A stretch of 64,000 bases of DNA. It comes from Myxococcales bacterium (lineage in GTDB: Bacteria; Myxococcota; Myxococcia; Myxococcales; UBA5297). The notes below the pieces were generated by a model. It saw nothing but the letters and a program-made list of their open reading frames with translations. It made no database searches and was not told the DNA's origin. The stretch spans positions 339,272 to 403,271 of the forward strand of contig JASGHK010000008.1 of NCBI GenBank assembly GCA_049841135.1. Reading direction: 5' to 3'. Position 1 is the stretch's first letter, and every line of letters begins with the position of its first letter. Shown piece after piece: positions 8,305 to 53,800 of the stretch. The position numbers were made by a program, and so were the translations under genes.

Positions 8305-9834
8305 ATGCCCTCCGCGACCGCTCTCGCCGCCCCGCTCGCCGCGGCCATCGTTGCCGCTGCCCCGGGACCGGCCTTGCCGAAGTGCGAGAAGTTCGGCGAC
8401 TCCTGGCGGGAGTACCGAACCTCCCACTTCGTCCTCGACACCGACGCCGGCAAGACCAAGGCCTTGGCGCTGGTCACCGAGCTCGAGCGGATGCGCGCGC
8501 TCATCATCCAAGCGGTCCTGGGCGGTCCGGCAGAGGTGCCGGGGACCCTGCGCGTTCTCGCGCCGAACGACCCCGCGCTCTTCACGCAGCTCTCCGGCCG
8601 GCGCGATCAGGTCGTGGGTTACTTCCTTCTTTCGTACCTGCAAGAGCCGACCGTGGTCGTGCAGACCGTGGGACTCGAAGTCGACCCCGAGCTGATCGCC
8701 CACGAGTTGGTGCACCACCTCTCCTGGCACATGTTCCCCCGGCAGCCACGCTGGTTCACCGAAGGCCTGGCGATGTTCATGCAGAGCGTCGGGAGAGAGC
8801 GCTCGGACGTGGAGTCCTCCACCGGCAGCCACCTCTCGCACAGCGGCGCCACCGGTGGCCACTGGGCAGGAGTGCAGCCTCGGTACGCCCTCGACGTCCT
8901 CAAGGTTGCGGGCAAGGTCGACGTCAAGGCGCTGCTCTCTTGGAAGGGCGTCACCGACGACGATATCCCGGAGCGATACCACCTCTGGAGCTGGCTCCTC
9001 TTCCACTATCTCTGGAACCAGGAGTCGAAGCGCTTCACGGCGCTCCAGGAGCGGCTGTCCCGGGCCGAGGATCCCGCCCAGGCTTGGCTCGCCGTCTTCC
9101 CCGAGTACAACCCGAATGATGCCGCCGCGGCCGCGAGGCTCTCGGAGGCGCTGGAGCAACACCGCCTGCACAGCAAGGGCCTCACCTACAAGGTCGAGGC
9201 GAAGGTCGAGCCCCAGGTGACCGAGGCCCCGCTGCCCGCCGCGGACGTCCACGTCCTCACCCTGGCGGTCCGCCGGGTCCGCCCCCTCTCCGTCGCCGTG
9301 GCCGAGCTGGAAGAGTCACTGCGCGAAGACCCTCTCCAGCCCCAGGCGATCGGGTGGCTCTCGACCCTCACGGACACGTCACCCCTCGAGGCCTTGCGCA
9401 ACGCCGTCGCCGCGCGGCCCACCGACGCGCGCGCCTGGCTCGAGCTCGCCTCGCACACCACCGAGCCCATCGAGAAGGAGAAAGCCGTACGCCAGGCTCT
9501 AGCCCTGGAGCCGGCGAACCCGACGTGCCTCAACAATCTGGCCTGGCTCCTCGTGACCACCGGTCGCGCCCGCGAAGCGCTCAAGCACGCCAACCGCGCC
9601 GTCGGCCTCGAGCCTTGGTCCGCCGCGACCATCGATACGCTCGCGGTCGTCGCGCGCGAGCTGGGCAAGTGCCCCGAGGCGCTCGTGCTGCAGCGCCGCG
9701 CCGTGGCGCTCTCCCTCTCCGATGGCGGAGAGACGATCCGCAAGCACCTGGAGGAGTTGGAGGCGCGAAGCAAGACGGCGCCAAACTCCAGCGCTCCGTT
9801 GCCGAGTGCTGCCCCGGCAGGCAAGGCCCCGTAG
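8305..9834 (+). CDS. secreted HExxH metallopeptidase-like protein (DUF1570-like) with C-terminal TPR repeats
   Basis: N-terminal signal-like Ala stretch. HELVHH zinc-binding motif. C-terminal ARAWLELA / NNLAWLL helix-repeat units. Confidence 0.55.
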   Translation: MPSATALAAPLAAAIVAAAPGPALPKCEKFGDSWREYRTSHFVLDTDAGKTKALALVTELERMRALIIQAVLGGPAEVPGTLRVLAPNDPALFTQLSGRRDQVVGYFLLSYLQEPTVVVQTVGLEVDPELIAHELVHHLSWHMFPRQPRWFTEGLAMFMQSVGRERSDVESSTGSHLSHSGATGGHWAGVQPRYALDVLKVAGKVDVKALLSWKGVTDDDIPERYHLWSWLLFHYLWNQESKRFTALQERLSRAEDPAQAWLAVFPEYNPNDAAAAARLSEALEQHRLHSKGLTYKVEAKVEPQVTEAPLPAADVHVLTLAVRRVRPLSVAVAELEESLREDPLQPQAIGWLSTLTDTSPLEALRNAVAARPTDARAWLELASHTTEPIEKEKAVRQALALEPANPTCLNNLAWLLVTTGRAREALKHANRAVGLEPWSAATIDTLAVVARELGKCPEALVLQRRAVALSLSDGGETIRKHLEELEARSKTAPNSSAPLPSAAPAGKAP

Positions 9835-10095
9835 GCGAGCGCCGTGAAACGACTTGCTGCATCACGACGGGGCTCGCGACCCAGCCAAGGGACCGGAGCG
9901 ACCTGCTAAAGATAGGCAGCTACTTTGTGACATGTTCTGCGACCCGGACTGAGCCGCGCGACCCGGAAACCCGAGGCCTTGCCGAAGTACCGCCTGGGCG
10001 ATCTGTCAGACCTCTGATGGAGCTCACCGAGCGCAGCGGCACCGCGCGGCCGGGCAGGCTTGACCAGGTACGAAAGTCGCTACCATATTTGGACC

Positions 10096-10372
10096 ATGAA
10101 GCTCACCGAGGACATCCAGCCCATCACCCAGTTGAAGACCCGCTCCTCGGAAGCTCATCCGTTCGGTCTCCCGCGATCGGCGCACGGTCGTCATCACCCA
10201 GCACGGGGAGGCGAAGGCCGTTCTCCTGGATGTCGCCACCTACGAGGCGCTCCGAGATGCCGCCCTGATGCACAGGCTCATCGGGCAGAGCGAAGCTGCC
10301 ATCCAGCAGGGCCGCACAGTCCCTCAGAAGGCGGTCTTCGAGCGCGTGCGAAGGCGCAAGAGCAAGCCCTAA
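10096..10372 (+). pseudogene. Phd/YefM-family antitoxin, frameshifted in this sequence (about 10153)
   Basis: Frame 1 reads MKLTEDIQPITQLKTRSSE and then degenerates. Frame 2 continues LIRSVSRDRRTVVITQHGEAKAVLLDVATYEALRDAALMHRLIGQSEAAIQQGRTVPQKAVFERVRRRKSKP*, ending at 10372. Together these make a textbook Phd/YefM antitoxin. An extra nucleotide sits in gaaGctc around 10150-10154. Frame 2 has no start codon of its own. Confidence 0.6.
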
Positions 10373-10391
10373 CCGGTCGAGGGCCTTCCTG

Positions 10392-10724
10392 ATGGCGCGA
10401 CGAACCGTCGAGTGGGCGGAGCCCGCAGTCGAGGACCTCCAGCGCATCTACGACTATCTGTGGGGCCTCAACCCCGGGGCGGCCGACCGAATCCTCACCC
10501 GCCTCGAAACAGCGGCCAGCCGCCTCGAGACGTTGGCAGAGCGTGGCCGGCTGGTGCCTGAGCTCGCAGACTCCGGGAACACCGGCTACCGCGAGCTGAT
10601 CGACGAGCCCTATCGAATCATCTACCGCATCCAGGGTAACCGAGTCTTCGTCGTCGCCGCGCTGGACGGGCGTCGCGACCTCGAATCGCTACTCCTCGAG
10701 CGATTGCTGGCTGCGCCTCGGTAG
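10392..10724 (+). CDS. parE: ParE/RelE-family type II toxin
   Basis: 110-aa protein with ...VEDLQRIYDYL...AADRILTRLE...YRELIDEPYRIIYRIQGNRVFVVAALDGRRDL, a ParE-type fold signature. The start overlaps the stop of the upstream frame-1 ORF as TGATG. Confidence 0.8.
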   Translation: MARRTVEWAEPAVEDLQRIYDYLWGLNPGAADRILTRLETAASRLETLAERGRLVPELADSGNTGYRELIDEPYRIIYRIQGNRVFVVAALDGRRDLESLLLERLLAAPR

Positions 10725-10789
10725 CGACTCGCCTCCTTCCCGCAAGGCCCTCCGCACGATCCGGCCCCACGCTCGAAGCAGCGAGGCGC

Positions 10790-11224
10790 CTACTTCTTCG
10801 GCTCTTCCCGTGCCGGCGGCGCCTTCTCCACCATCGGCCGGGTCTCGGGCTTGCCGTCCTTGAACGGCGCGTTCCAGACCGCCGGCCGCTGCCCCTCGAT
10901 GCTCTCGCCGATGCCGCGCGTGGCGGTATCGGCGGAGGTCAGCCCGAACATGATGGCCAGGAACACGATCGAAAGCAGGAAGACCACCGCGTTGAACTTC
11001 CTCTTCTCGAACGCCAGGTGCATGAAGACGGCCGCTACCAGGCCCGCCTTCAGGGTGGCCACGCCCATCGCCACCAGGATGTTCCAGTTGCCGAAGTCGA
11101 GGTAGCTGACGCCGACCGTCAGCGCGGTCAGCACGAGCAGCGTGCCCCACACCCCCAGATAGCTCTTGAGCGGCAGGACGTGCGGGACGTGGTCTGCCGT
11201 GGACGTGTGTGCGTGTTCGCTCAT
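10790..11224 (-). CDS. coxD: cytochrome c oxidase subunit IV (prokaryotic caa3-type small subunit)
   Basis: 144-aa protein with three TM helices. The KSYLGVWGTLLVLTALTV segment is typical of the bacterial COX4 family. Lies directly downstream of coxC. Confidence 0.7.
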   Translation of the reverse strand: MSEHAHTSTADHVPHVLPLKSYLGVWGTLLVLTALTVGVSYLDFGNWNILVAMGVATLKAGLVAAVFMHLAFEKRKFNAVVFLLSIVFLAIMFGLTSADTATRGIGESIEGQRPAVWNAPFKDGKPETRPMVEKAPPAREEPKK

Positions 11225-13644: not shown

Positions 13645-14583
13645 TCACTTCAGGCTCTTGATGTAGGCGACCAGCGCGTCGAGCTGCTTCTGCGACACGA
13701 GGCCCTTGAAGACCGGCATCACCGGCTGGAAGCCCTTCACGACCTTCGCGTTGGGGTCGGTGATGCTCTCGCGCAGGTACTGCTCGTCCGCCTTCACCGT
13801 GCTGCCGTCGGCGAGCTGGACGTCGTGCTCCGCCAGGCCCTTCCAGGTCGGTCCGGTGCCGGGCTTGCCGTCGGTCGTGTGGCAGGTCGTGCAGGCGAGC
13901 TTGGTGGAGAGCTTCTCGCCGGCCAGGACGGGCGGGACGTCCTTCTCCTCCGCCCCCGACTCCAGCCACTCGTTGAAGTCCTTCTCCGCCATCACCTCGA
14001 GCTTGCCGCGCATGGCCGAGTGGCCGGTGCCGCAGAACTCGGTGCAGGTGATGGTCTTGAGCCCCAGCTCGGTCGCCTCGAACCACGCGGTGGTGTAGCT
14101 CGAGGGCACCACGTCCTTCTTCAGGCGGAACTCCGGCACGTAGAAGGAGTGGATGACGTCCTTGGAGCTCATCACCAGCTTCACCGGCCGGCCGAGCGGC
14201 ACCTTGAGCTCGTTCACCGAGATCGCGCCGTTCGGGTAGGCGAAGGTCCACATCCACTTCTCGGCGGTGACCGAGACCTCCAGCGCGTTGGCCGGGGCGA
14301 TCTGCTGGTTCAGGAACCCCTTGAAGCCGACGACGAAGAGCACCAGCACGATCGCCACGGGGATGGCCGTCCAGACGATCTCGATGCGCGTGTTGTGGTC
14401 GGGCGCGTTCGGCAGCTCCTCCTCGGTGCGCCGCCGGTAGCGGATGGCGAAGAAGCTCATCCCCCCGACCACCAGCACGAAGAAGAAGGCCGAGACCCAC
14501 AGGACCAGGTCCCAACCTGCGTCGACCTGCCCCGCCACGGTCGAGGCCTGCTCCGGGAGCCAGAAGGATCCGCCGCTGCTCAT
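13645..14583 (-). CDS. coxB: cytochrome c oxidase subunit II with fused C-terminal cytochrome c domain (caa3-type), canonical copy
   Basis: CuA site H...CTEFCGTGHSAM and C-terminal CTTCH haem c motif. Start taken at the internal MSSGGSFWLPEQ; the ORF start at 14628 is possible but less likely. Confidence 0.9.
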   Translation of the reverse strand: MSSGGSFWLPEQASTVAGQVDAGWDLVLWVSAFFFVLVVGGMSFFAIRYRRRTEEELPNAPDHNTRIEIVWTAIPVAIVLVLFVVGFKGFLNQQIAPANALEVSVTAEKWMWTFAYPNGAISVNELKVPLGRPVKLVMSSKDVIHSFYVPEFRLKKDVVPSSYTTAWFEATELGLKTITCTEFCGTGHSAMRGKLEVMAEKDFNEWLESGAEEKDVPPVLAGEKLSTKLACTTCHTTDGKPGTGPTWKGLAEHDVQLADGSTVKADEQYLRESITDPNAKVVKGFQPVMPVFKGLVSQKQLDALVAYIKSLK

Positions 14584-14584
14584 G

Positions 14585-15463
14585 TCATCCCGCCCTCTCG
14601 TGCGCCGAGACTCGACCGTCGTCCGCACCCGGCCGAACGGGCCGATCGCGATCTCGGTCAGACGCCTGCGGGCTCCGGTTGAGGCGCCACAGGAACAGGC
14701 CCAGCAAGAGCACGCTCAGGGCGCCGCCGGCCTTCATCAACCGCGTCGCGGCCAGCACATAGCCGCGCGCGTTCGCGTCGTAGTGGAAGCAGAACAGGAC
14801 GACCTTGTCCCAGGCGCTGCCCAGCCTGCCCTCCGAGGCCTCGGTCAGCGCCAGCCGGAGGCTCTTCTCGGGGAAGCTGATGCCATAGAGGGTGCGCGAG
14901 AGCTTCCCGCCCGGGGTCACGACGAAGGCGCCCGCGGCGTGGGCGTACTCCTTCTGCTGCTCGTCCCAGCGGTAGTGGAAGCCGACTGCGTCCGCCAGCC
15001 GCTTCACGCTCGCCGCGTCGCCGGTCAGGAACTCGAAGCCCTTCTCCGGCACCGGGCGGCCGTACTCCTTCAGGTAGTTCTTCTGCTTCTGCTGGGCGAC
15101 CTCGGTCGTGTCCCGCGGGTCGAAGCTCACGACCAGCACGCGGTAGTCCTTGCCCGCGCTCCACGAGAGGTCCTTGAGCCCGTTGGTCAGGCCGTTGACC
15201 ACGAGCGAGCAGAGCATCGGGCAACGGAAGTACGCGAGGACCAGCACCACCGGCTTGCCGTCGGAGAAGTAGTCGCCGAGGGTCACCGCGCGCCCGGCGC
15301 CGTCCTTGAGGACGATCTCACGGGGAAGCTCTGCCCCCGGCTTCTCTTCGATGGCGATGTCCTTGAGCTCGGGAGGCAGCGCCTCCTCCGCTCGGGACTG
15401 GCCGCTCGCCAGAAGAGTCCCCATCATCGCCGCCATCACGGCGACTGCTCGCCACCGCCTCAT
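14585..15463 (-). CDS. sco: SCO1/SenC copper chaperone for CuA assembly
   Basis: Thioredoxin-like fold with CPMLC (CxxxC) and a conserved His region. Start chosen at MRRWRAVAVMAAMMGTLLASGQSRA (signal/anchor); a cat triplet was confirmed at 15461-63. Sits directly upstream of coxB. Confidence 0.8.
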   Translation of the reverse strand: MRRWRAVAVMAAMMGTLLASGQSRAEEALPPELKDIAIEEKPGAELPREIVLKDGAGRAVTLGDYFSDGKPVVLVLAYFRCPMLCSLVVNGLTNGLKDLSWSAGKDYRVLVVSFDPRDTTEVAQQKQKNYLKEYGRPVPEKGFEFLTGDAASVKRLADAVGFHYRWDEQQKEYAHAAGAFVVTPGGKLSRTLYGISFPEKSLRLALTEASEGRLGSAWDKVVLFCFHYDANARGYVLAATRLMKAGGALSVLLLGLFLWRLNRSPQASDRDRDRPVRPGADDGRVSAHERAG

Positions 15464-33637: not shown

Positions 33638-35110
33638 ATGCCCTCCTCCCGCTTGCTGCTCGCCGCCCTCGCTGCGGTCTCCGCCGTCTCCGTCGCCGGC
33701 TGCGCCACGGTGCCGCTCTACCCGCCCCGCCCGCCGGCCGCTCCCGGCGCGCCCATGGCCGACCCCGCGCCGTCGAAGGCGGTCGTCCACCTGACCGTGA
33801 CCCCCGAAGGCCTCAACCAGGCCATCGACCTGGCGCTGCCGCTGGAGGGCTCCTCGACCTTCGAGCTGCGCGGGCCGCGCCCCTGGAAGTGGAGCCGCAC
33901 GCCCATCGCCTTCAAGTTCGCCGACGGGAAGATCCAGGCCGCGGCCACCGTCAACGTCAGCGCCGAGCTGCCGATCATCGGCACCCAGTCGCTCTCCATG
34001 GACCTCAAGCTCTCGGGCGAGCCGGTGCTGACGAGCGAGTACAAGGCCAAGCTGCAGTCGGTGCAGGTGGAGCTCTCGTCCAAGGACATGAAGGTCAAGG
34101 CCGCCGACGCGGTGACCAGCGCCCTCAAGAAGCTGCGCGACGAGTTCCAGACGACCATCGAGAACTACGCGTACGACCTCTCGCCGCGGGTGATGGAGTG
34201 GTACGCGCGGCTGGCGGTCCCCATCGAGCTGCCGCTGGGCGAGGCCAAGGGCTGCCTGGCGGTGAAGGTGACCGGCGTCGAGGCCGGGCCCTCGGTGACC
34301 GCCGGCGGCTGGGAGAAGGACCTGGCGTTCATCATCGCGCCCTCGGTGACCCTGCCCTGCAACCCACCGACGCTGCCGCCCAAGCCGGCGCCGCTGGCCA
34401 ACGTCGCGACGCTCCCCTCGGGCCCCTTCACCCTGGTCGCGCCCATCGCCGCCTCCTACGACGAGCTGCAGAAGGCGATGTCCCTGGCGTTCACCGACGG
34501 CAAGCTCTTCTTCACCAAGGACTTCCCGGAGCTGTACCTCGAGAAGCCGGAGATCTACGCCGCGAACAACGAGCTGGTGCTCAAGCTGCACCTGGGCGGC
34601 GTGGCCAAGGCCAAGGGCCTGGCGCTCGACCTCGAGGGCGACATCTTCTTCGCCGGCCACCCGGCGGTGATCGACAACGAGCTGCAGATCCCCGACCTGC
34701 AGCCGACCATCGAGACCTCGAGCTTCCTGCTCTCGCTCAAGGCCAAGCTCGACGGCGACTCCATCCGCGACCAGGCCCGCCGCGCGCTGCGCCTGGACCT
34801 GGGGGAGCGCCTGGCCTCGGTGCGCGGCAAGGTCTCCGGCGACTTCCAGTTCAACCCCGGCTGCCTGCGCAGCGACGTCTCGCGCATCGAGGTCACCGGC
34901 ATCTACCCGCACGGCTCGTACCTGCGCATCTACGTCGCCGCGACCGCCCAGGCCTCGGTGTACGTGCCCTGCCCCACGCTGCCCGCCGAGGCGCCCGAGC
35001 CGGCGCCGGCGCCGGCGCCAGTGCCGACGACCATCCAGGCGCCGCCTCCCGAACCCGGCGCCCAGCCTGCCGCCGCTCCGGCGCCCGCAGCCCCGGCGGA
35101 GAAGCCGTGA
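33638..35110 (+). CDS. lipoprotein, hypothetical (DUF4403-like)
   Basis: MPSSRLLLAALAAVSAVSVAGC lipobox. About 490 aa, beta-rich, with a Pro/Ala-rich C-terminal tail. Family assignment is tentative. Confidence 0.45.
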   Translation: MPSSRLLLAALAAVSAVSVAGCATVPLYPPRPPAAPGAPMADPAPSKAVVHLTVTPEGLNQAIDLALPLEGSSTFELRGPRPWKWSRTPIAFKFADGKIQAAATVNVSAELPIIGTQSLSMDLKLSGEPVLTSEYKAKLQSVQVELSSKDMKVKAADAVTSALKKLRDEFQTTIENYAYDLSPRVMEWYARLAVPIELPLGEAKGCLAVKVTGVEAGPSVTAGGWEKDLAFIIAPSVTLPCNPPTLPPKPAPLANVATLPSGPFTLVAPIAASYDELQKAMSLAFTDGKLFFTKDFPELYLEKPEIYAANNELVLKLHLGGVAKAKGLALDLEGDIFFAGHPAVIDNELQIPDLQPTIETSSFLLSLKAKLDGDSIRDQARRALRLDLGERLASVRGKVSGDFQFNPGCLRSDVSRIEVTGIYPHGSYLRIYVAATAQASVYVPCPTLPAEAPEPAPAPAPVPTTIQAPPPEPGAQPAAAPAPAAPAEKP

Positions 35111-35469
35111 TCCCGGTCGTCAACCTGCGCCAGAAGCTCGCCGGCTTCGGCGAGCACTGGCAGCCGCGCATCGTCGGCGAGCTGAACGGCCAGCACGTCA
35201 AGGTGGCCAAGCTCCTGGGCGAGTTCGTCTGGCACCACCACGAGAACGAGGACGAGCTGTTCCTGGTGCTCCATGGGACGCTCCTCCTCGAGTTTCGGGA
35301 CCGGACGCTGACCCTGGGCGAAGGCGAGGCCTCTGCGTCGTCCCGCGCGGCGTCGAGCACCGGCCGGTGGCGCGCGAGGAAGTCCACGTGCTGCTCTTCG
35401 AGCCGGCCGCGACGCTCAACACCGGAAACGTGGTCAACGAGCGGACCTACGTCGCGACCCGCGGCTGAG
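35107..35469 (+). pseudogene. cupin-domain protein, frameshifted in this sequence (about 35332)
   Basis: GTG start overlapping the upstream stop (GTGA). Frame 1 reads VIPVVNLRQKLAGFGEHWQPRIVGELNGQHVKVAKLLGEFVWHHHENEDELFLVLHGTLLLEFRDRTLTLGEGEA. Frame 3 reads CVVPRGVEHRPVAREEVHVLLFEPAATLNTGNVVNERTYVATRG*. A 1-nt deletion (gcc tTc tgc) would restore a standard cupin. Confidence 0.55.
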
Positions 35470-35490: not shown

Positions 35491-36595
35491 TCAGCCGACC
35501 GTCTCCCGGAGCGCACGCCGCAGCTCGTCCACCGTCGCGAAGACCTCGACGACCCCCTTGAGGCCCGCCAACAGCTCGAGCAGCTCTTCGGCCTCCTCGT
35601 GCGCGGCCAGCGCCTCGTCGCCACGTTCCCCGAGCAGCGCCGACAGGCCGCGCGAGACGGCCGCCTCGTCCTGCAGCTCGATCAGCGACTGGCCCTTGAG
35701 CCACTCCAGGACCGCGCGGGCCCACGCGAGGTCCTCGTCCCCCTCCTGCAGCGCGGGCGTGTCGGACTCGGGCGTGGGCACCGCGAGGCTCGTCCCCTCC
35801 AGTCCTCGGGGGACGCTCCCCAGCTCGCGCAGGGCGCCGCGCCGCCCCAGCGATGCGAGCTGAGCCAACCGCGGCTCACAGGCCTCGACCACGGGGAGCG
35901 CTCCCAGCTCGCCCGTCTGCGCGAACGCCGCCAGCACCGACGCCACCGGCGCCCACGCGAGCCACTGTCCCTTGCGGACCTTGAAGCGGTCGCCGTCCAC
36001 GTCCTGGGCCTCGAGCTTCGCGCTCCGGCGCGCCGCCGGCCGTCCCGGCGTCGGTGCAGGCGCAGGTGCCGTCGGGGAAGGCGACGAGCAGCGCGCAGCG
36101 GTCGCCGTGGACCACGACGCGCGCCAGGTCGTCCATCCGCGACCAGAGCCGGAAGCTCTGCGGCGTCTCGGCTCCCTGCGCGCGCAGCGCCTCGAGCGCA
36201 CAGGCCAGCTCCTCGCGGTCGCCGGCCGCCATCGCCTCGCGGTTGGTCCGCCCCCAGACGAGGAGCCCTTCGCCACTGGGCCAGCGCTGCGCCTTGCGCT
36301 CCACCTTCTCGATTCGAGGCGTGAGCAGCCGCTTGGCGCCGCTGGCCAGCGCGCGAAGCTCGGCCTCGTCGAGCAGCAGGATCCACCGCTCGCCTCGGCC
36401 CTCGGGGAAGTAGACGAGCCGGAAGCGCCCGCCGCCCTGCGGCACCCAGCCGCCGTAGCCGCACCCCGACTGGAACGCGTCCTCCGCGCCGAACGCCCGC
36501 GCCCGCGCCTCCGGCGGCACCAATCCGATCGCCGCGAGGACCTCGGCGAAGAACCCGCGCAGGTCTTCCGGCGCCTGGAAGACCCACTCCGTCAT
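35491..36595 (-). pseudogene. hypothetical protein (about 367 aa), frameshifted in this sequence (about 36016)
   Basis: N-terminal 200 aa (MTEWVFQAPEDL...VVVHGDRCALLVAFPDG) is in the frame of ORF 35876..36709. The C-terminal 160 aa (LEAQDVDGDRFKVRKGQWLAWAP...RRALRETVG) is in the frame of ORF 35491..36276. Each frame turns to Arg/Gly junk beyond the junction. An extra base lies in cgcgaaGctcgag. Confidence 0.4.
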
Positions 36596-37855: not shown

Positions 37856-39728
37856 ATGCGCCTCGCGACCGCCTCGGGCGAGCTCGACGTGCTGCTCGCC
37901 AGCGAGACGCGAACGAAGCAGGGCCTCGCCATCATCGACTGGCAGCGCTCTCCGCTGGCGGAGGCCTTCTTCTCGGGAACGGTGGGCGAGCCCTACGAGA
38001 TCCAGGACGGCGCCCGCACGCTGGAAGGCACCCTGCTGTCGCGGTCGCTGGTGCGGTTCGAGGCGGGCGTGCTGGCGGGTGTGCGCGGCGCGGGGTTCGA
38101 GCTGCGAAGGCTCGAGTCCGGCCTCTGGGAGCAGGCGGCGACGGCGGGACGAGCGTCAGCCTCCCCCGGCCCGGCCGGCCGCTCCAGGCTGCGGCCACGC
38201 CCCCGCGGCCAGCGCGAGCGGCAGGGACCCTCGGTCGACTTCGCGCTCGACGAGGCGCAGACCCGCGCGGTCGAGACGCCGGCCGGACAGGCGACGCTCG
38301 TCCTGGGCGAGGCCGGCTGCGGCAAGACGACGGTCGCGCTTCACCGTCTGGTCCGGCTGCGCAGAGCGGCGACCAAGCGGTTCAAGGCCTGCGTCATCGT
38401 GCCCACCGACGGGCTGCGCCGGCTGACCGAGCTGCTCCTGGCGCGCCTCGGCGTCCACGACGTCGAGGTCTGGCTCTACGAGCGGTGGGCGGGGTTCCAG
38501 GCGCGGCGGGTCTTCCCCGACGTGCCGCGCCGCGAGGGGCAGGACGCCTCGGCGGCGACGATGCGCCTCAAGCGCCACCCGGCGGTGCGCGGCGAGCTTC
38601 GAGGCGCTCGCGGCGAAGCCCGCGGCGGTCCCCGAAGAGGAGGACGAGCCGACCATCCCGACCCGCGCGCACGCGCGCCGGCACGACCTGCAGCGCCTGT
38701 TCGGCGACCGCGCGATCCTCGAGCGGGTGGCGAAGGCGGCGGGCCTGCCGGCGGCCGCGGTGTCCGAGACGTTCGAGCACACCCGCGTGCAGTTCAGCCC
38801 GACCGCCGAGGACGAGTTCGCGCACGTCGACGCGGCCCGGCTGGCGACGCTCGACGGCCGCACCCTCGACGACGGCACGCCCATGGAGGATGCGGCCACC
38901 ATCGACGCCGAGGACTTCGCGGTCCTCTTCGAGCTCGACCGGCTGCGCGCGGGGCTCGTCGGCGCCCGGCCCAGCGAGCCCACCTCCTTCGACTGCGTCG
39001 TGCTCGACGAGGCGCAGGAGTTCTCGGCGCTGGAGCTGCGGCTCATCGGGCGCAGCCTCGCGCCGGGCGGGACGCTCATCGTCGCCGGAGACGCCGACCA
39101 GCAGGTCGATCCCACCGCGTGCTTCGAGGGCTGGGGCACCGCCATGGCGGAGCTTGGCGCGCCGAGCTACCAGACCGCGACGCTGGAGGTGAGCTACCGC
39201 TGCCCGCCGCAGGTGACCGAGTTGGCCCGCCGCGTCCTCGACGGCAAGCCGATGAAGCTCCCCAAGCCCTCTCCACGCTCGCCAGTGGCGATCGAACGCT
39301 TCGACCACGACTTCTACCGGGTCGCCTGGCTCATCGAGGCGCTTCAGGATCTGCAGGAGCGCGACCGCTGCGCGGCGGTGGCCGTCATCGCTCGCTCGGC
39401 CGAGGAGGCACGGCGCCTCTTCCCGTTGCTGCGCCGCGGTGTCCTCGCGCGGCTGGCGCTGGATGGCCAGTTCACCTTCCTGGCTGGAGTGAACGTGACC
39501 TGCGTCCCGGAGGTGAAGGGCCTGGAGTTCGACGTGGTGATCCTCCCCGACGCGACCTTGGAGGCCTATCCCGACCTCCCGGCAGCACGGCGCGCCCTGT
39601 ACGTGGCGGTGACCCGGCCGACCGGCCAACTCGTGTTGTCGACCGTGGGCGGCTGGTCGCCCCTCCTCCCCATGCAAAAAACGCCTGAGATTCCGAGCAG
39701 TTGCGAACCACAATCTTCAACCACTTGA
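37856..39728 (+). pseudogene. UvrD/HelD-like superfamily-1 helicase, frameshifted in this sequence (about 38598)
   Basis: Walker A ATLVLGEAGCGKTTVALHRL sits in frame 2. Frame 3 continues EALAAKPAAVPEEEDEPTIP...DCVVLDEAQEFSALELRLIG...LIVAGDADQQV...VEVSYRCPPQV...VTRPTGQLVL, the helicase motifs II through VI. An extra T lies in gagctTcgag. Start taken at MRLATASGELDVLL (atg 37856). Confidence 0.55.
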
Positions 39729-47841: not shown

Positions 47842-50800
47842 ATGCGAACCGCACAGACCTACCGGATCGTCGTCGCCACCCTCTTCGCGCTCGGCTCCCT
47901 GACCGGCCTGGCCGGCTGCTTCCAGCCCGCCTCCAAGACCTGCGACAACGGCAACTTCTGCCCGCCGAACATGCGCTGCGTCTCCAAGGACGGCTTCGAC
48001 CTCACCCACAAGATCTGCGTGAGCGAGGCCTGCGGCGACGGCGTCATCCAGCGCGACCTGGGCGAGGAGTGCGACGACGGCGAGGAGACCGCCACCTGCA
48101 CCTCGCTGTGCCTGAAGTCGCGCTGCGGCGACGGGCACCCCAACTCCGCCGCCGGCGAGATTCTGCGACCCGGGCGAGAAGGGCGAGACCTCGGAGTGCA
48201 CCGCCAACTGCAAGCTCTCCTCGTGCGGCGACGGGTACGTCAACAAGGCCCTCAAGGCCGACGGCGTCACCCCCACCGAGGAGTGCGACGACGGCAAGGA
48301 GAGCGCCACCTGCACCAAGGACTGCAAGGTCTCCACGTGCGGCGACAGCTACGTCAACAAGACCCTGGTCAACGGCAAGCCGGTCGAGGAGTGCGACGAC
48401 GGCGGGGAGACCCCCACCTGCACCAAGGACTGCAGGACCTCCACCTGCGGCGACGGCTACATCAACAAGGCCGTGGGCGCGGACGGCAAGCCGACCGAGG
48501 AGTGCGACGACGGCCAGGAGACCCCGAACTGCACCAAGGACTGCAGGGTCTCGGTATGCGGCGACGGCTACCCCAACAAGTCCCTCAAGCCCGACGGGAA
48601 GGTCGCCGAGGAGTGCGACGACGGCCAGGAGACCACCATCTGCACCAAGGGCTGCAAGGTCTCGTCCTGCGGCGACGGCTACATCAACAAGGCCCTCAAG
48701 TCCGACGGCAAGCCCTCCGAGGAGTGCGACGACGGCCCCAACGGCTCGGCGACCTGCACCGCCCAGTGCACCGTCTCCTTCTGCGGCGACGGCAAGACCA
48801 ACTCGCTCGCCGTCCCCAAGGAAGACTGCGACCCGGGCGCCCCCGGTGCCGAGACCGCCATCTGCAACAAGGACTGCACCCTCTCCCAGTGCGGCGACGG
48901 CAAGCTCAACAAGGCCCTGCGCCCGGACGGCTCCGCGGAGCAGTGCGACGACGGCCCCAACGGCTCGGCCACCTGCACCGTCAAGTGCACCGTCTCGGCC
49001 TGCGGCGACGCCGTGGTCAACTCGCTGACCGTGCCGCCCGAGGAGTGCGACCCCGGCGCGCCCGGCGCCATGACCCACCAGTGCAACGACAACTGCACCA
49101 CCGCCTCCTGCGGCGACGGCAAGGTCAACCCCAACCACCTGGTGGCGACCTCCGGCGGCTCGCACCCCGAGCAGTGCGACCCCGGCGCCGCCGGCGAGAC
49201 CGCCAACTGCAACTCCGACTGCACCTTCGCCAGCTGTGGCGACGGCGTCGTCAACAAGCACACCGTCCCGCCGGAGGCGTGCGACCCCGGCTCGCCCGGC
49301 GTCGACACCGCGCTCTGCAACAAGGACTGCACCGTGGCGCGCTGCGGCGACGGCTACGTCAACCACGAGCTGGGCGAGGAGTGCGACGAGGGAACCGAGA
49401 CGGCCAACTGCAACGGCCCGGCGGCAGGCGCGGTCGCCTGCCACTTCGCCAAGTGCCACGACGGCTACACCAACGGCCTGGCCGGCGAGAACTGCGACCC
49501 GGGCGGCACCGACCTGACCGAGAGCTCCACCTGCAACAACGACTGCACGACCTCGCGCTGCCACGACGGCAAGAAGAACGTCGCCGCGGGTGAGGCCTGC
49601 GACCCCGGCGGCACGAGCACCACCGAGACGTTCGACTGCAACAACGACTGCACCGCCCAGCGCTGCGGCGACTTCAAGCTCAACAAGGCCGCCGGCGAGC
49701 AGTGCGACGCCCCGATCAACTGCAACGACTGCAAGTCGGCCGACTGCGGCGACGACATCGTCAACCCGGCGGTGGGCGAGGAGTGCGACCCCGGCGCCGC
49801 GGGTGAGACCCCGACCTGCACCTCCAGCTGCAAGATCTCCAAGTGTGGCGACGGCTACCCCAACCATGCCCTGGTCGCCCTGACGGTCACCTGCACCAGC
49901 GCCCCCTGCGACACCGGCGACACCTGCGTCGGCGGCCTCTGCTACCGCCCCGCCGAGACCTGCGACCTGGGCCAGCCGGGCAAGGAGGACGCCACCTGCA
50001 ACAGCGACTGCACCTCCGCCGCCTGCGGCGACGGCACGCTCAACCGCGCCAACGGCGAGCAGTGCGACGACAAGCTCTGCGAGGACCACCTCAAGGCCTG
50101 CAAGGGCGACAGCGACTGCCGCGGCATCGGCGCCGGCGCGTGCCTGTCCGGTTCGGCCACCTGCAACGGCACCGCCGCCAACGCGCTGGCGTGCAAGACC
50201 AGCTACTGCGGCGACAGCTACACCAACGCGCTGGCCAGCGAGGACTGCGACCCCGGCCCGTTCTTCGAATCCGACGCCTGCAACTCGGACTGCACCCTCG
50301 CCCAGTGCGGCGACGGCAAGGTCAACCGCAAGCACGCGCTGGCCGGCGGCGGCTTCGAGGAGTGCGACCCCGGCGGCTCGGCCTCCGTCGACCCCACCAA
50401 GACCTTCCAGACCGCCGACTGCAACTTCGACTGCACCGCCTCGCGCTGCGGCGACTTCAAGAAGAACCTCGACGCCAACGAGGAGTGCGACGACGGGCCG
50501 CTGGGCTCGACCACCTGCACCACCGACTGCAAGCTCTCCAAGTGCGGCGACGGCAAGGTCAACCCCAAGGCCGGCGAGGAGTGCGACGAGGGCACCGCCA
50601 CCCCCAGCGCCCTGTGCAACAACAACGCGGCCGGGGCCATCAGCGCCAACGTGCAGTGCAAGCTGACCCGCTGCGGCGACGGCTGGCGCAACACCGCCAA
50701 GGAGGCCTGCGACCCCGGCGCCGGGCTCATCGAGAGCCCCAGCTGCAACTCGGACTGCACCAGCCACCAGTGCGGCGACAGCAAGCTCAACGTCGCCGCC

Positions 50801-53800
50801 GGCGAGCAGTGCGACGACGGGGCCACCGGGTCGTCCAAGTGCAACGGCAACGACTCCCTGGCCATCGCCGCCGGGGTGCAGTGCAAGTTCGCCCGCTGCG
50901 GCGACGCCTACACCAACGCCAAGACCTCGCCCGTGGAGCAGTGCGACACCGGAGGCGAGTCCACCAACTGCAACCGCGACTGCACCACCGCCTCCTGCGG
51001 CGACGGCAAGATCAACCTCGCCCGCCTCGAGCAGTGCGACGACGGCTCCGCCGGCAGCGCCACCTGCAACCGGCCCGGCGCGGTCAAGGCCTCCAACCCG
51101 ACGGTCAAGGTCGAGTGCCTCATCTCCAAGTGCGGCGACGACTACGCCAACACCGTCGGCAGCGCCGAGGCCTGCGACCCCGGCCCCACCGGCGAGTCCA
51201 ATGGCTGCAACCGCGACTGCACCGCCGCCACCTGCGGCGACGGCAAGGTCAACCTGACCCGCGGCGAGCAGTGCGACGACGGCGCCGGCGGCAGCGCCAC
51301 CTGCAACCGGCCCGGCGCGGTCAAGGCGGCCAACCCGACGGTCAAGGTCGAGTGCCTCATCTCCAAGTGCGGCGACGACTACGCCAACACCGTGGGCAGC
51401 GCCGAGGCCTGTGACCCCGGCCCCACCGGCGAGTCCACCGGCTGCAACCGCGACTGCACCGCCGCCACCTGCGGCGACGGCAAGGTCAACCTGACCCGCG
51501 GCGAGCAGTGCGACGACGGCGCCGGCGGCAGCGCCACCTGCAACCGGCCCGGCGCGGTCAAGGCCTCCAACCCGACGGTCAAGGTCGAGTGCCTCATCTC
51601 CAAGTGCGGCGACGACTACGCCAACACCGTCGGCAGCGCCGAGGCCTGCGACCCCGGCCCCACCGGCGAGGCCACCGGCTGCAACCGCGACTGCACGGTC
51701 GCCTCCTGCGGCGACAACAAGATCAACGTGACCCGCGGCGAGCAGTGCGACGTGGGCGTCAACGGGAGCGCGGCCTGCAACAAGAAGGGCGCGCTCACCG
51801 GCGGCGGCACCAACGTGGAGTGCAGGTTCTCCAGCTGCGGCGACGCCTACACCAACGGCCTGGCCGGCGAGACCTGCGACAACGGCACCTCCAACAACGG
51901 CAACGACAAGGACTGCCTGGCCAATTGCCTCGTCGCCAGCTGCGGCGACGGCTACCTGGAGACCAACGGCACCGCGCCGCACGAGACCTGCGACCAGGGG
52001 ACCGACAACGACCGCACCACCTGCCCGTACGGCTCGGTCTCCTGCACGTCCTGCCGCAGCAACTGCACGCAGCTCATCACCATCAACGGCGCCTACTGCG
52101 GCGACGGCATCGCGCAGACCGGGGAGTCCTGCGACAGCGGCAACAGCCTGGGTTGCGGCCTGTGCTCCGCCGACTGCCAGGACGTCCTCTCGGCAGCAGC
52201 CGCCAAGGGCTACGTCACCTTCCCCGACCGGTGGGAGCTCGACGGACAACATGCTGCTGACCCTCGACGACGGCATCAACGCACCGGTGGTCTTCCAGCT
52301 CGTCCAGAACGGCTCCACCTCGGTCGCCGCGCCGCGCGTCAAGGTGGACATCTCCGGCAGCTCCGGCGACAAGGGCAACGAGATTGCCGGGAAGCTGGTG
52401 ACGGCGATGGGCACGGTCTACGACCGCCTCCGCCTGAAGGCGACTGCGAGCAACAACGTGGTGACCGTCGAGAACGCCTTGACCGGCAAGTTTGGCAACC
52501 GGCCCATGTCGACCACCGACACCGACGTCCACCTCTACAACGACCTCGACAACGCCGACACCCTCAAGGGCGGGGTCGGCTACAGCTGCTCGGAGGGCGT
52601 GGGCTGCGCGGACAGCCGCGACTGCTTCCCCGGGACGGCCTGCGTCTCGAACATCTGCACTGACACCAGCTACAAGCTCACCGTCGTCACCGGCACCTAC
52701 CTCGGCCGCATCCAGGCCGACGTCGGCGCGCTCGACTGCGGCACGGTCTGCGACGACGACTACCCGGCCAACACCCTGGTGGTGCTCACCGCCTCGGTCA
52801 CCGCCCCCGCCACCTGGGGCGGCTGGGAGGCCGGCGGGCCGTGCGGCTCGGCCGGCACGGCCACCAAGTGCACGGTGACCATGGACGCCGCCAAGACCGT
52901 CCGCGGCATCTTCAACGGCGTCAACAAGTACCAGCTCACCGTCACCCGCAGCGGCCTCTCCGGCAGCATCAGCACCGGCGACGGCAAGATCACCGGGTGC
53001 ACCGGCACCTGCACCGCCGCCGACTACGCCGCCAACGCCTCGGTCACCATCACCGCCACCGACGGCGCGACCGACGTCTTCACCGGCTGGGCCGGCGCCT
53101 GCACCGGCACGGTCAACCCCTGCGTCCTGAGCATGGGCACCGCCGACAAGGGCGTCACCGCGACCTTCCTGCCGGGCGCCTCGCTCACGGTCGCCACGGC
53201 CGCCAGCCACGGCGGGCTGGGCACCATCACCACCACCGACGCGAAGATCAGCTGCGGGGCCGACTGCAGCGAGAGCTACACGGTCGGCACCGTGGTCCGG
53301 GTGAGCGCCAACGTGGGGACCAACTCCATCTTCAAGGGCTGGACCTCGACGCCGGCAGGGGTCTGCACGGCCAACCCCTGCGACCTCACCTTGAGCGAAC
53401 CCACCTCGCTCACCGCCACCTTCGAGCAGCCCGAGCTGACCGTCATCAAGGCCGGCGCGGGCAGCGGCACGGTGACCGGCGACGTGGGCGGCGCGCCCGA
53501 GGAGCTGAACTGCGGGGCGAGCTGCGCCCACACCTTCACGCTCAACGACACGGTGAGCCTGACCGCGACCGCCGACTCGGGCTCGCGCTTCGACGCGGCC
53601 ACCGGCTGGACGGGCGACGCCGCCTGCACCACCAACCCCTGCACGGTGAGCATGACCGCCGCCAAGAGCGTCACCGCCACCTTCATCAAGACCTGGACCG
53701 TGACGGTGCAGGTCACGGGCACCGGCACCGTCACCGACAACTTCTCGCACAGCTGCTCGAGCGGCAGCTGCCCCTTCGTCTACGACGCGCTCGCCGACGT

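Follow-up and report, generated by a model that had tools for sequence, protein, structure and literature searches.

A one-base frameshift, most probably an assembly error, in the antitoxin gene of a Phd/YefM-ParE cassette from a Myxococcales bacterium

Antitoxins of the Phd/YefM type bind their toxins through their C-terminal part, and myxobacterial genomes typically hold many toxin-antitoxin (TA) paralogues. PaaA2, the small antitoxin of ParE2, lacks a DNA-binding domain. The toxin described here resembles ParE2 of E. coli O157 (PDB entries 5cw7 and 5cze, with PaaA2), a Mesorhizobium plasmid-stabilisation toxin (5ceg) and PfiT (9w3a), with which it shares the ParE/RelE-superfamily fold (PF05016). 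Its antitoxin resembles RelB (9g12_C) and Rv2865 of M. tuberculosis (3g5o) in the N-terminal Phd/YefM domain. Residual indels cause frameshifts and inflated gene counts in nanopore assemblies of high-GC bacteria (PMC11649196), and two further papers describe such indels splitting genes in long-read assemblies generally (PMC9262707, PMC8011154).

The DNA analyzed here, hereafter the window, is the whole stretch of 64,000 nucleotides from the MAG of a Myxococcales bacterium, and all positions refer to it. By its sequence, the locus of interest is an ordinary two-gene type II TA operon that couples a Phd/YefM antitoxin to a ParE-type toxin. The antitoxin gene lies directly 5' of the toxin gene on the same strand, at a distance of 19 nt, and the pair is preceded by a single promoter-like site. 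As assembled, the antitoxin gene is interrupted by one base.

Layout of the cassette and its surroundings

The antitoxin gene is divided between two reading frames of the forward strand. The frame opened by the ATG at 10096 encodes 19 Phd/YefM residues (MKLTEDIQPITQLKTRSSE, 10096..10152), to which the N-termini of the homologues P0121-P0132 are identical or nearly so, and then runs on through 79 out-of-frame residues rich in Arg, Pro, Gly and Ala to a TGA at 10390-10392 that overlaps the parE ATG (10392) by one base. We read this 98-residue chimera (10096..10392), which gave no match in a Pfam search, as reaching parE by an accident of a GC-rich, stop-poor frame. Codons 20-91 of the antitoxin and its TAA occupy the +1 frame (10154..10372), which is fully open, begins with LIRSVSRDRRTVVITQHGEAKAVLLDVATYEAL and ends at the TAA at 10370-10372. 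Upstream, this frame is closed by a stop at 10133-10135, and it contains no ATG, GTG or TTG before the ATG at 10268, its first start codon.

If one base at 10151-10153 is skipped, the antitoxin becomes whole, with 91 amino acids. By the curated cut-offs the repaired product belongs to the Phd/YefM family, since it scores 51.4 bits (E 1e-13; cut-off 29.8 bits) against PF02604 (PhdYeFM_antitox) over profile positions 2-72 of 74, and 40.6 bits (cut-off 20.8 bits) against NCBIfam TIGR01552 (phd_fam). A profile HMM made from the antitoxin homologues finds its match in the window in two pieces, one per frame, which meet at the shift. The Phd/YefM domain is thus split at 10153 in the deposited sequence, a break that is due only to the suspect base and that we judge to be an assembly error.

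The toxin gene (10392..10724, forward strand) encodes an intact protein of 110 amino acids that matches PF05016 with 62.8 bits (cut-off 23) over profile positions 1-88 of 89. It keeps 40 of the 44 highly conserved ParE columns, including every invariant residue (R51, G52, E57, E68, R75, R94 and R104), so that score, length and conserved residues place it in the ParE/RelE superfamily. We file it as ParE-type and not as RelE because it falls below the cut-off of the RelE/StbE subfamily TIGR02385 (20.8 bits; cut-off 27.9) and because its best solved relatives are named ParE. It is 100% identical to MGC4122227.1, a protein encoded on a 1,652,613-bp contig and annotated in GenBank as 'MAG: ... RelE/ParE family toxin [Myxococcales bacterium]', and the homology database contained no second protein identical to it. 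A sequence-only reading of this locus had described a complete toxin ORF, an antitoxin in need of a +1 shift near 10153 and a C-terminal antitoxin frame without a start codon of its own. All of this is borne out by the full-length toxin match, by the match of the spliced antitoxin to PF02604 where the as-assembled product matches nothing, and by the position of the first start codon.

Judging by the families to which the two proteins belong, a dimer of the antitoxin, formed by its N-terminal domain, would repress its own promoter, while its C-terminal segment would wrap ParE. Loss of the labile antitoxin would leave ParE free to poison DNA gyrase.

The predicted promoter is sigma-70-like (10060..10089, forward strand), with TTGACC at 10060-65, an 18-nt spacer and CATATT at 10084-89. 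It was the only promoter-like site that a promoter scan returned in 9800-10850, where 0.0 were expected in shuffles. The promoter proposed in the sequence-only reading, TTGACC...TACCAT, therefore stands in its -35 half, which is also kept in the orthologous cassette described below, and falls in its -10 half: the scan gives CATATT, and the orthologous cassette keeps the -35 hexamer, the spacing and a CAAATT -10, not TACCAT. Because 6 nt separate the -10 element from the antitoxin ATG, and because no Shine-Dalgarno sequence precedes that ATG, the TA mRNA is probably leaderless or nearly so. The same arrangement of promoter and ATG is conserved in the orthologous cassette, and the annotated start of the antitoxin there (MYQIKGQIWDM...) is probably 10 codons too long. 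A search of the promoter region for inverted repeats or operators returned only GC-rich palindromes, none of them conserved in the orthologue, and an Rfam scan of 9700-10900 returned no RNA family.

The cassette had also been placed in a pocket of lower GC. There is a small local dip (0.63-0.67, compared with 0.70 for the window), which is marginal and does not set the cassette apart, as its genes, with an overall GC of 0.645-0.67, are no lower than the adjacent cox genes (0.635-0.665). Their GC3 of 0.81-0.86 is slightly below the 0.89-0.97 of the neighbors, which fits horizontal acquisition. Downstream, coxIV and coxIII lie on the opposite strand. The upstream neighbor (8305..9834, forward strand), which had been called a DUF1570 gene, does not retain that label. 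It reaches only 11.1 bits (E 0.51; cut-off 22) over positions 5-123 of the 129-position DUF1570 profile, and scores instead as a TPR protein; an HExxH motif (HELVHH, metallopeptidase-like) is present in it. No close relatives of it were found among 185,579 GTDB species genomes. A terminator-like hairpin, CTGCTAAAGATAGGCAG, with a T-rich tail lies at 9903-9929 on the forward strand, 70 nt past the stop of this gene, and is likely its terminator. The rest of the 261-nt spacer upstream of the cassette has no Rfam match.

An orthologous cassette and selection on the two genes

The nearest other cassette, L001, lies on a 7.5-kb contig (JACRCT010000110) of the MAG GCA_016218885.1, where both genes are intact. 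At the protein level, its antitoxin (MBI5542873.1, identical with P0121) is 89% identical to the repaired antitoxin of the window and its toxin (P0002) is 80% identical to the toxin of the window. When the two cassettes were aligned as DNA, the antitoxin genes showed a single gap of one column, exactly at the shift, where the window reads TCGGAAGCTCATC and L001 reads GCTG-AGCTTGTT. A comparison with orthologous loci had been proposed in the sequence-only reading as a way to check the shift; comparison with the orthologous cassette shows an L001 antitoxin in frame and a window antitoxin with exactly one extra base. The site itself, GAAGCTC (10150..10156, forward strand), corresponds to GAGCTT in the orthologue. 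Furthermore, all 30 of the 30 antitoxin homologues read ...R(A/S)xEL(L/V/I)R... in one frame.

The part of the antitoxin gene past the shift has been kept in good order. Over these 72 codons, comparison with L001 gives a dN of 0.062 and a dS of 0.736 (dN/dS 0.084); there are 36 differences, 25 of which fall on third codon positions once the frame is repaired, and the segment contains no stops, no further indels and no other lesion. The repaired protein keeps 33 of 36 strongly conserved columns. Purifying selection thus appears to extend through the part of the antitoxin that has been shifted out of frame. Given these 72 clean codons and their dN/dS, any real inactivation would have to be extremely recent. 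The toxin gene, with a dN/dS of 0.18 in the same comparison, bears no visible sign of decay, and neither gene looks decayed apart from the one extra base.

The two cassettes are alike in the -35 element and spacing of the promoter, in gene order and in their nearly equal gene lengths, and they differ in the frame of the antitoxin and in the spacer between antitoxin and toxin, which is 12 nt in L001 and 19 nt in the window. Their neighborhoods are unrelated. L001 is flanked by UvrD-type helicases and a PNP_UDP_1 gene, and the cassette thus moves between genomes. As delimited by the homology, which extends from the promoter to the toxin stop, the mobile unit is about 670 bp long and consists of the promoter and the two genes. 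The window also contains a helicase gene, which we considered as a sign of shared context with the one beside L001 and rejected, because the two share generic superfamily-1 motifs only. A search for the syntenic locus in the GTDB species genomes, with the upstream neighbor as query, gave only two distant and irrelevant matches, and neither version of the shift site turned up when metagenome contigs were scanned by exact pattern.

Single-base frameshifts elsewhere in the window

We scanned each ORF of the window for jumps of the GC3-based coding signal from one frame to another that coincide with no stop or start boundary, and then checked each candidate by homology. An earlier Viterbi segmentation on GC3 had proven too coarse for this purpose, labeling the TA cassette itself as non-coding. 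With the antitoxin counted in, the 64 kb contain six single-base frameshifts, five of them confirmed and one probable, or about one per 11-13 kb, so that approximately 10% of the genes in the window are frameshifted, each of them otherwise pristine. Frameshifts so dense in genes so clean fit consensus errors; they do not fit the decay of genes into pseudogenes in a myxobacterial genome of large size and high GC. One further candidate, at about 14661, was rejected as the normal boundary between a SCO1/SenC-like gene and coxII. The two genes (13648-15445, reverse strand) overlap by about 44 nt at the coxII start, which is normal.

In a cupin gene (35107..35468, forward strand), one base is missing between 35328 and 35331, inside GAGGCCTC. 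The repaired product matches Cupin_2 across the junction with 46.6 bits, whereas the as-assembled match is cut at profile position 45 of 70 and scores 24.7 bits, which is below the cut-off. A conserved hypothetical protein (35491..36595, reverse strand) carries an extra base at 36016, a +1 frameshift within GAAGCTC. After repair, its 367 amino acids align end to end with three homologues of 362-367 amino acids (100% coverage, 62-70% identity), which pass through the junction segment ELEA.DVDG, while the annotation of the MAG has a stump of 239 amino acids (QM765_48240; 53% coverage). This protein matches no Pfam family, and one of its homologues from JGI, P0155, also looks frameshifted past residue 165 or so. 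The third gene encodes a superfamily-1 helicase similar to HelD/helicase IV (37856..39728, forward strand), with an extra base within 38597-38600, in GAGCTTC. One frame encodes its Walker A motif (GEAGCGKTT), while DEAQ, UvrD_C and the later helicase motifs follow in the next; the match to Pfam AAA_19 runs across the junction, and HelD (PDB 6wvk) matches both halves in order.

The remaining gene encodes a Cys-rich repeat lipoprotein of about 2027 amino acids (TIGR02232; 47842..53927, forward strand) with a +1 frameshift at 48160-48163. Its signal peptide shares one frame with the first repeats and the remainder lies in the next, the repeat unit CGDG...GE-x-CDPG spans the junction, and the downstream frame offers no start codon for 312 nt. 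A second +1 switch in this gene, near 52244 (52225-52251), is probable. The protein has dozens of the Cys-rich acidic repeats of myxobacteria, some of them nearly identical in tandem, and a C-terminal region that resembles InlB-B repeats.

Half of the frameshift sites share a sequence context. Three of the six, those of the antitoxin (10150), the hypothetical protein (36013) and the helicase (38594), fall in the 7-mer GAAGCTC/GAGCTTC, which is the palindrome GAGCTC with one A/T doubled, and in all three cases deletion of one A/T restores both palindrome and frame. The Glu-Leu that the repair yields is confirmed by homologues at two of these three sites, in the antitoxin and in the hypothetical protein. 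The window contains 28 such 7-mers (0.3% of positions) and 40 copies of GAGCTC. The binomial probability that at least three of six sites fall in the 7-mer is 6e-7, or 3e-5 with 10 nt of padding, before correction for the choice of motif. We noticed the association after the fact, and a crude post-hoc correction over 8192 strand-collapsed 7-mers brings the probability to about 0.005 for exact overlap and about 0.03 with 3 nt of padding. The recurrent 7-mer suggests, as its simplest reading, a context-specific error of base-calling or polishing. Such an error is possibly linked to methylation of GAGCTC. The lipoprotein site GAGATTC at 48157 may, by way of speculation, be an analogous doubling in GAGATC.

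The shared context also bears on which base of the antitoxin gene is surplus. Dropping one A (10151 or 10152) gives GAG CTC and dropping the G at 10153 gives GAA CTC, both of which encode Glu-Leu, so the protein is the same either way. The sequence-only reading had taken the G to be the extra base; because the 7-mer points to a doubled A/T in GAGCTC, one of the two As seems more likely.

Readings of the frameshift and comparison with known systems

We consider it very probable that the one-base frameshift in the antitoxin gene is a consensus indel error of the assembly, in which case the orphan toxin would be an artefact. An assembly indel was among the explanations offered from the sequence at the outset, and it is now favored by the in-frame orthologue, by the purifying selection on the segment past the shift, by at least four other frameshifts in the window and by their recurring context. 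The lesion is a single-base indel with respect to relatives and is accompanied by no secondary lesions, and like lesions occur in unrelated and otherwise intact genes of the same contig. The MAG, with its contig of 1.65 Mb, was presumably built from long reads, as judged from the length of that contig. Most likely, the true genome reads GAGCTC at 10150-10156; the antitoxin would then be intact and would neutralize the toxin in the usual way, and the paradox of an orphan toxin disappears if the extra base is a consensus error. Several points count against an artefact: the antitoxin site is not a long homopolymer, the link to the 7-mer was seen post hoc, the searches described above brought to light no independent assembly of the population and no syntenic relative, and a real polymorphism of the population could be masked by the consensus of the MAG.

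It is unlikely that the frameshift is real and very recent, with the cell surviving by means of a Phd/YefM paralogue acting in trans, poor expression of parE or tolerance of the toxin. The deposited sequence does carry the shift, the toxin is intact, and myxobacterial genomes are typically rich in TA paralogues. However, a real shift would require that at least four more one-base frameshifts, all of them fresh and in unrelated genes of the same 64 kb, had arisen alongside it, three of the frameshifts sharing one sequence context, and relaxed selection has left no trace in the gene. Without the autorepressor, moreover, toxin expression should rise, and an HMM search of the 64-kb window found no second Phd/YefM or ParE gene. 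Were the extra base real, the organism would possess an intact, derepressed ParE without its cognate antitoxin, tamed by cross-talk with paralogues or by a 34-residue fragment of the antitoxin, an outcome to which we attach rather little credence. Stranger still would be a variant of this reading in which GAGCTC undergoes single-base insertions by a real and recurrent mutational process in this organism. The fragment just mentioned, MHRLIGQSEAAIQQGRTVPQKAVFERVRRRKSKP, would be a C-terminal peptide made from the internal ATG at 10268 and acting as a mini-antitoxin in the manner of PaaA2. The in-frame ATG is present, the peptide carries the segment that presumably binds the toxin, and the closest solved relative of the toxin is the ParE2 of the PaaA2-ParE2 complex (5cw7). 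We nevertheless regard a mini-antitoxin as very improbable: neither a Shine-Dalgarno sequence nor a promoter lies upstream of 10268, the Met encoded there is also found in the orthologue, simply as a conserved residue in the interior of its full-length antitoxin, and the peptide would be superfluous if the shift is an artefact.

Inactivity of the toxin, which would make loss of the antitoxin harmless and leave the whole cassette to decay, had also been offered as an explanation and finds hardly any credit with us. The toxin does depart from consensus at four of the 44 highly conserved ParE columns (W24, A49, A90 and A107), but all four departures are also found in P0002, which adjoins an intact antitoxin, every invariant residue is in place, and the dN/dS of the toxin is 0.18. 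The least probable reading of all is that the antitoxin is made at a regulated low level by programmed +1 ribosomal frameshifting or by transcriptional slippage. A +1 shift is indeed what is required, and the frame past the shift is perfectly preserved. Against this, one frame suffices to encode the antitoxin in the orthologue and in each of the 30 homologues, and the site, TCG GAA GCT C, has no stop, rare codon, slippery run or upstream SD-like stimulator; the prfB type of programmed +1 frameshift is likewise contradicted by the in-frame orthologues and by the lack of a stop, rare codon or SD-like element at 10140-10156. The other genes with the same lesion, furthermore, have no reason for recoding.

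With an assembly error as the preferred explanation, the organism itself most probably lacks the anomaly seen at the antitoxin, and the biological import of the locus is small. The cassette is of an already annotated kind, the Phd/YefM-ParE class, and offers nothing new biologically; its toxin is already annotated in GenBank. The practical import lies in the sequence: the window, and presumably the whole MAG, bears about one single-base frameshift per 11-13 kb, and no broken gene, orphan toxin or unusually short or long ORF in the window should be trusted before it has been compared with reads. Polishing of the assembly may be helped by the fact that the error recurs inside GAGCTC, which may also hint at a methylated motif.

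The lesions in the window resemble the residual long-read (nanopore) errors of bacterial and MAG assemblies in that isolated single-base indels split intact genes in recurring contexts. They differ from the classic long-read errors, which fall in longer homopolymers, in that the three that share a context are doublings of an A/T inside GAGCTC. As for the proteins, the toxin aligns over its full length (residues 6-96) with the nearest solved ParE toxins (5cw7, 5ceg and PfiT), although the relationship is distant (E about 1e-3), and its partner is of the Phd/YefM type and is neither PaaA2 nor ParD. The antitoxin aligns over residues 7-77 with RelB (9g12_C) and Rv2865 (3g5o), again at a distance (E 2e-3 to 7e-3), and these two antitoxins pair with RelE-type toxins, unlike the antitoxin described here, whose toxin is ParE-type.
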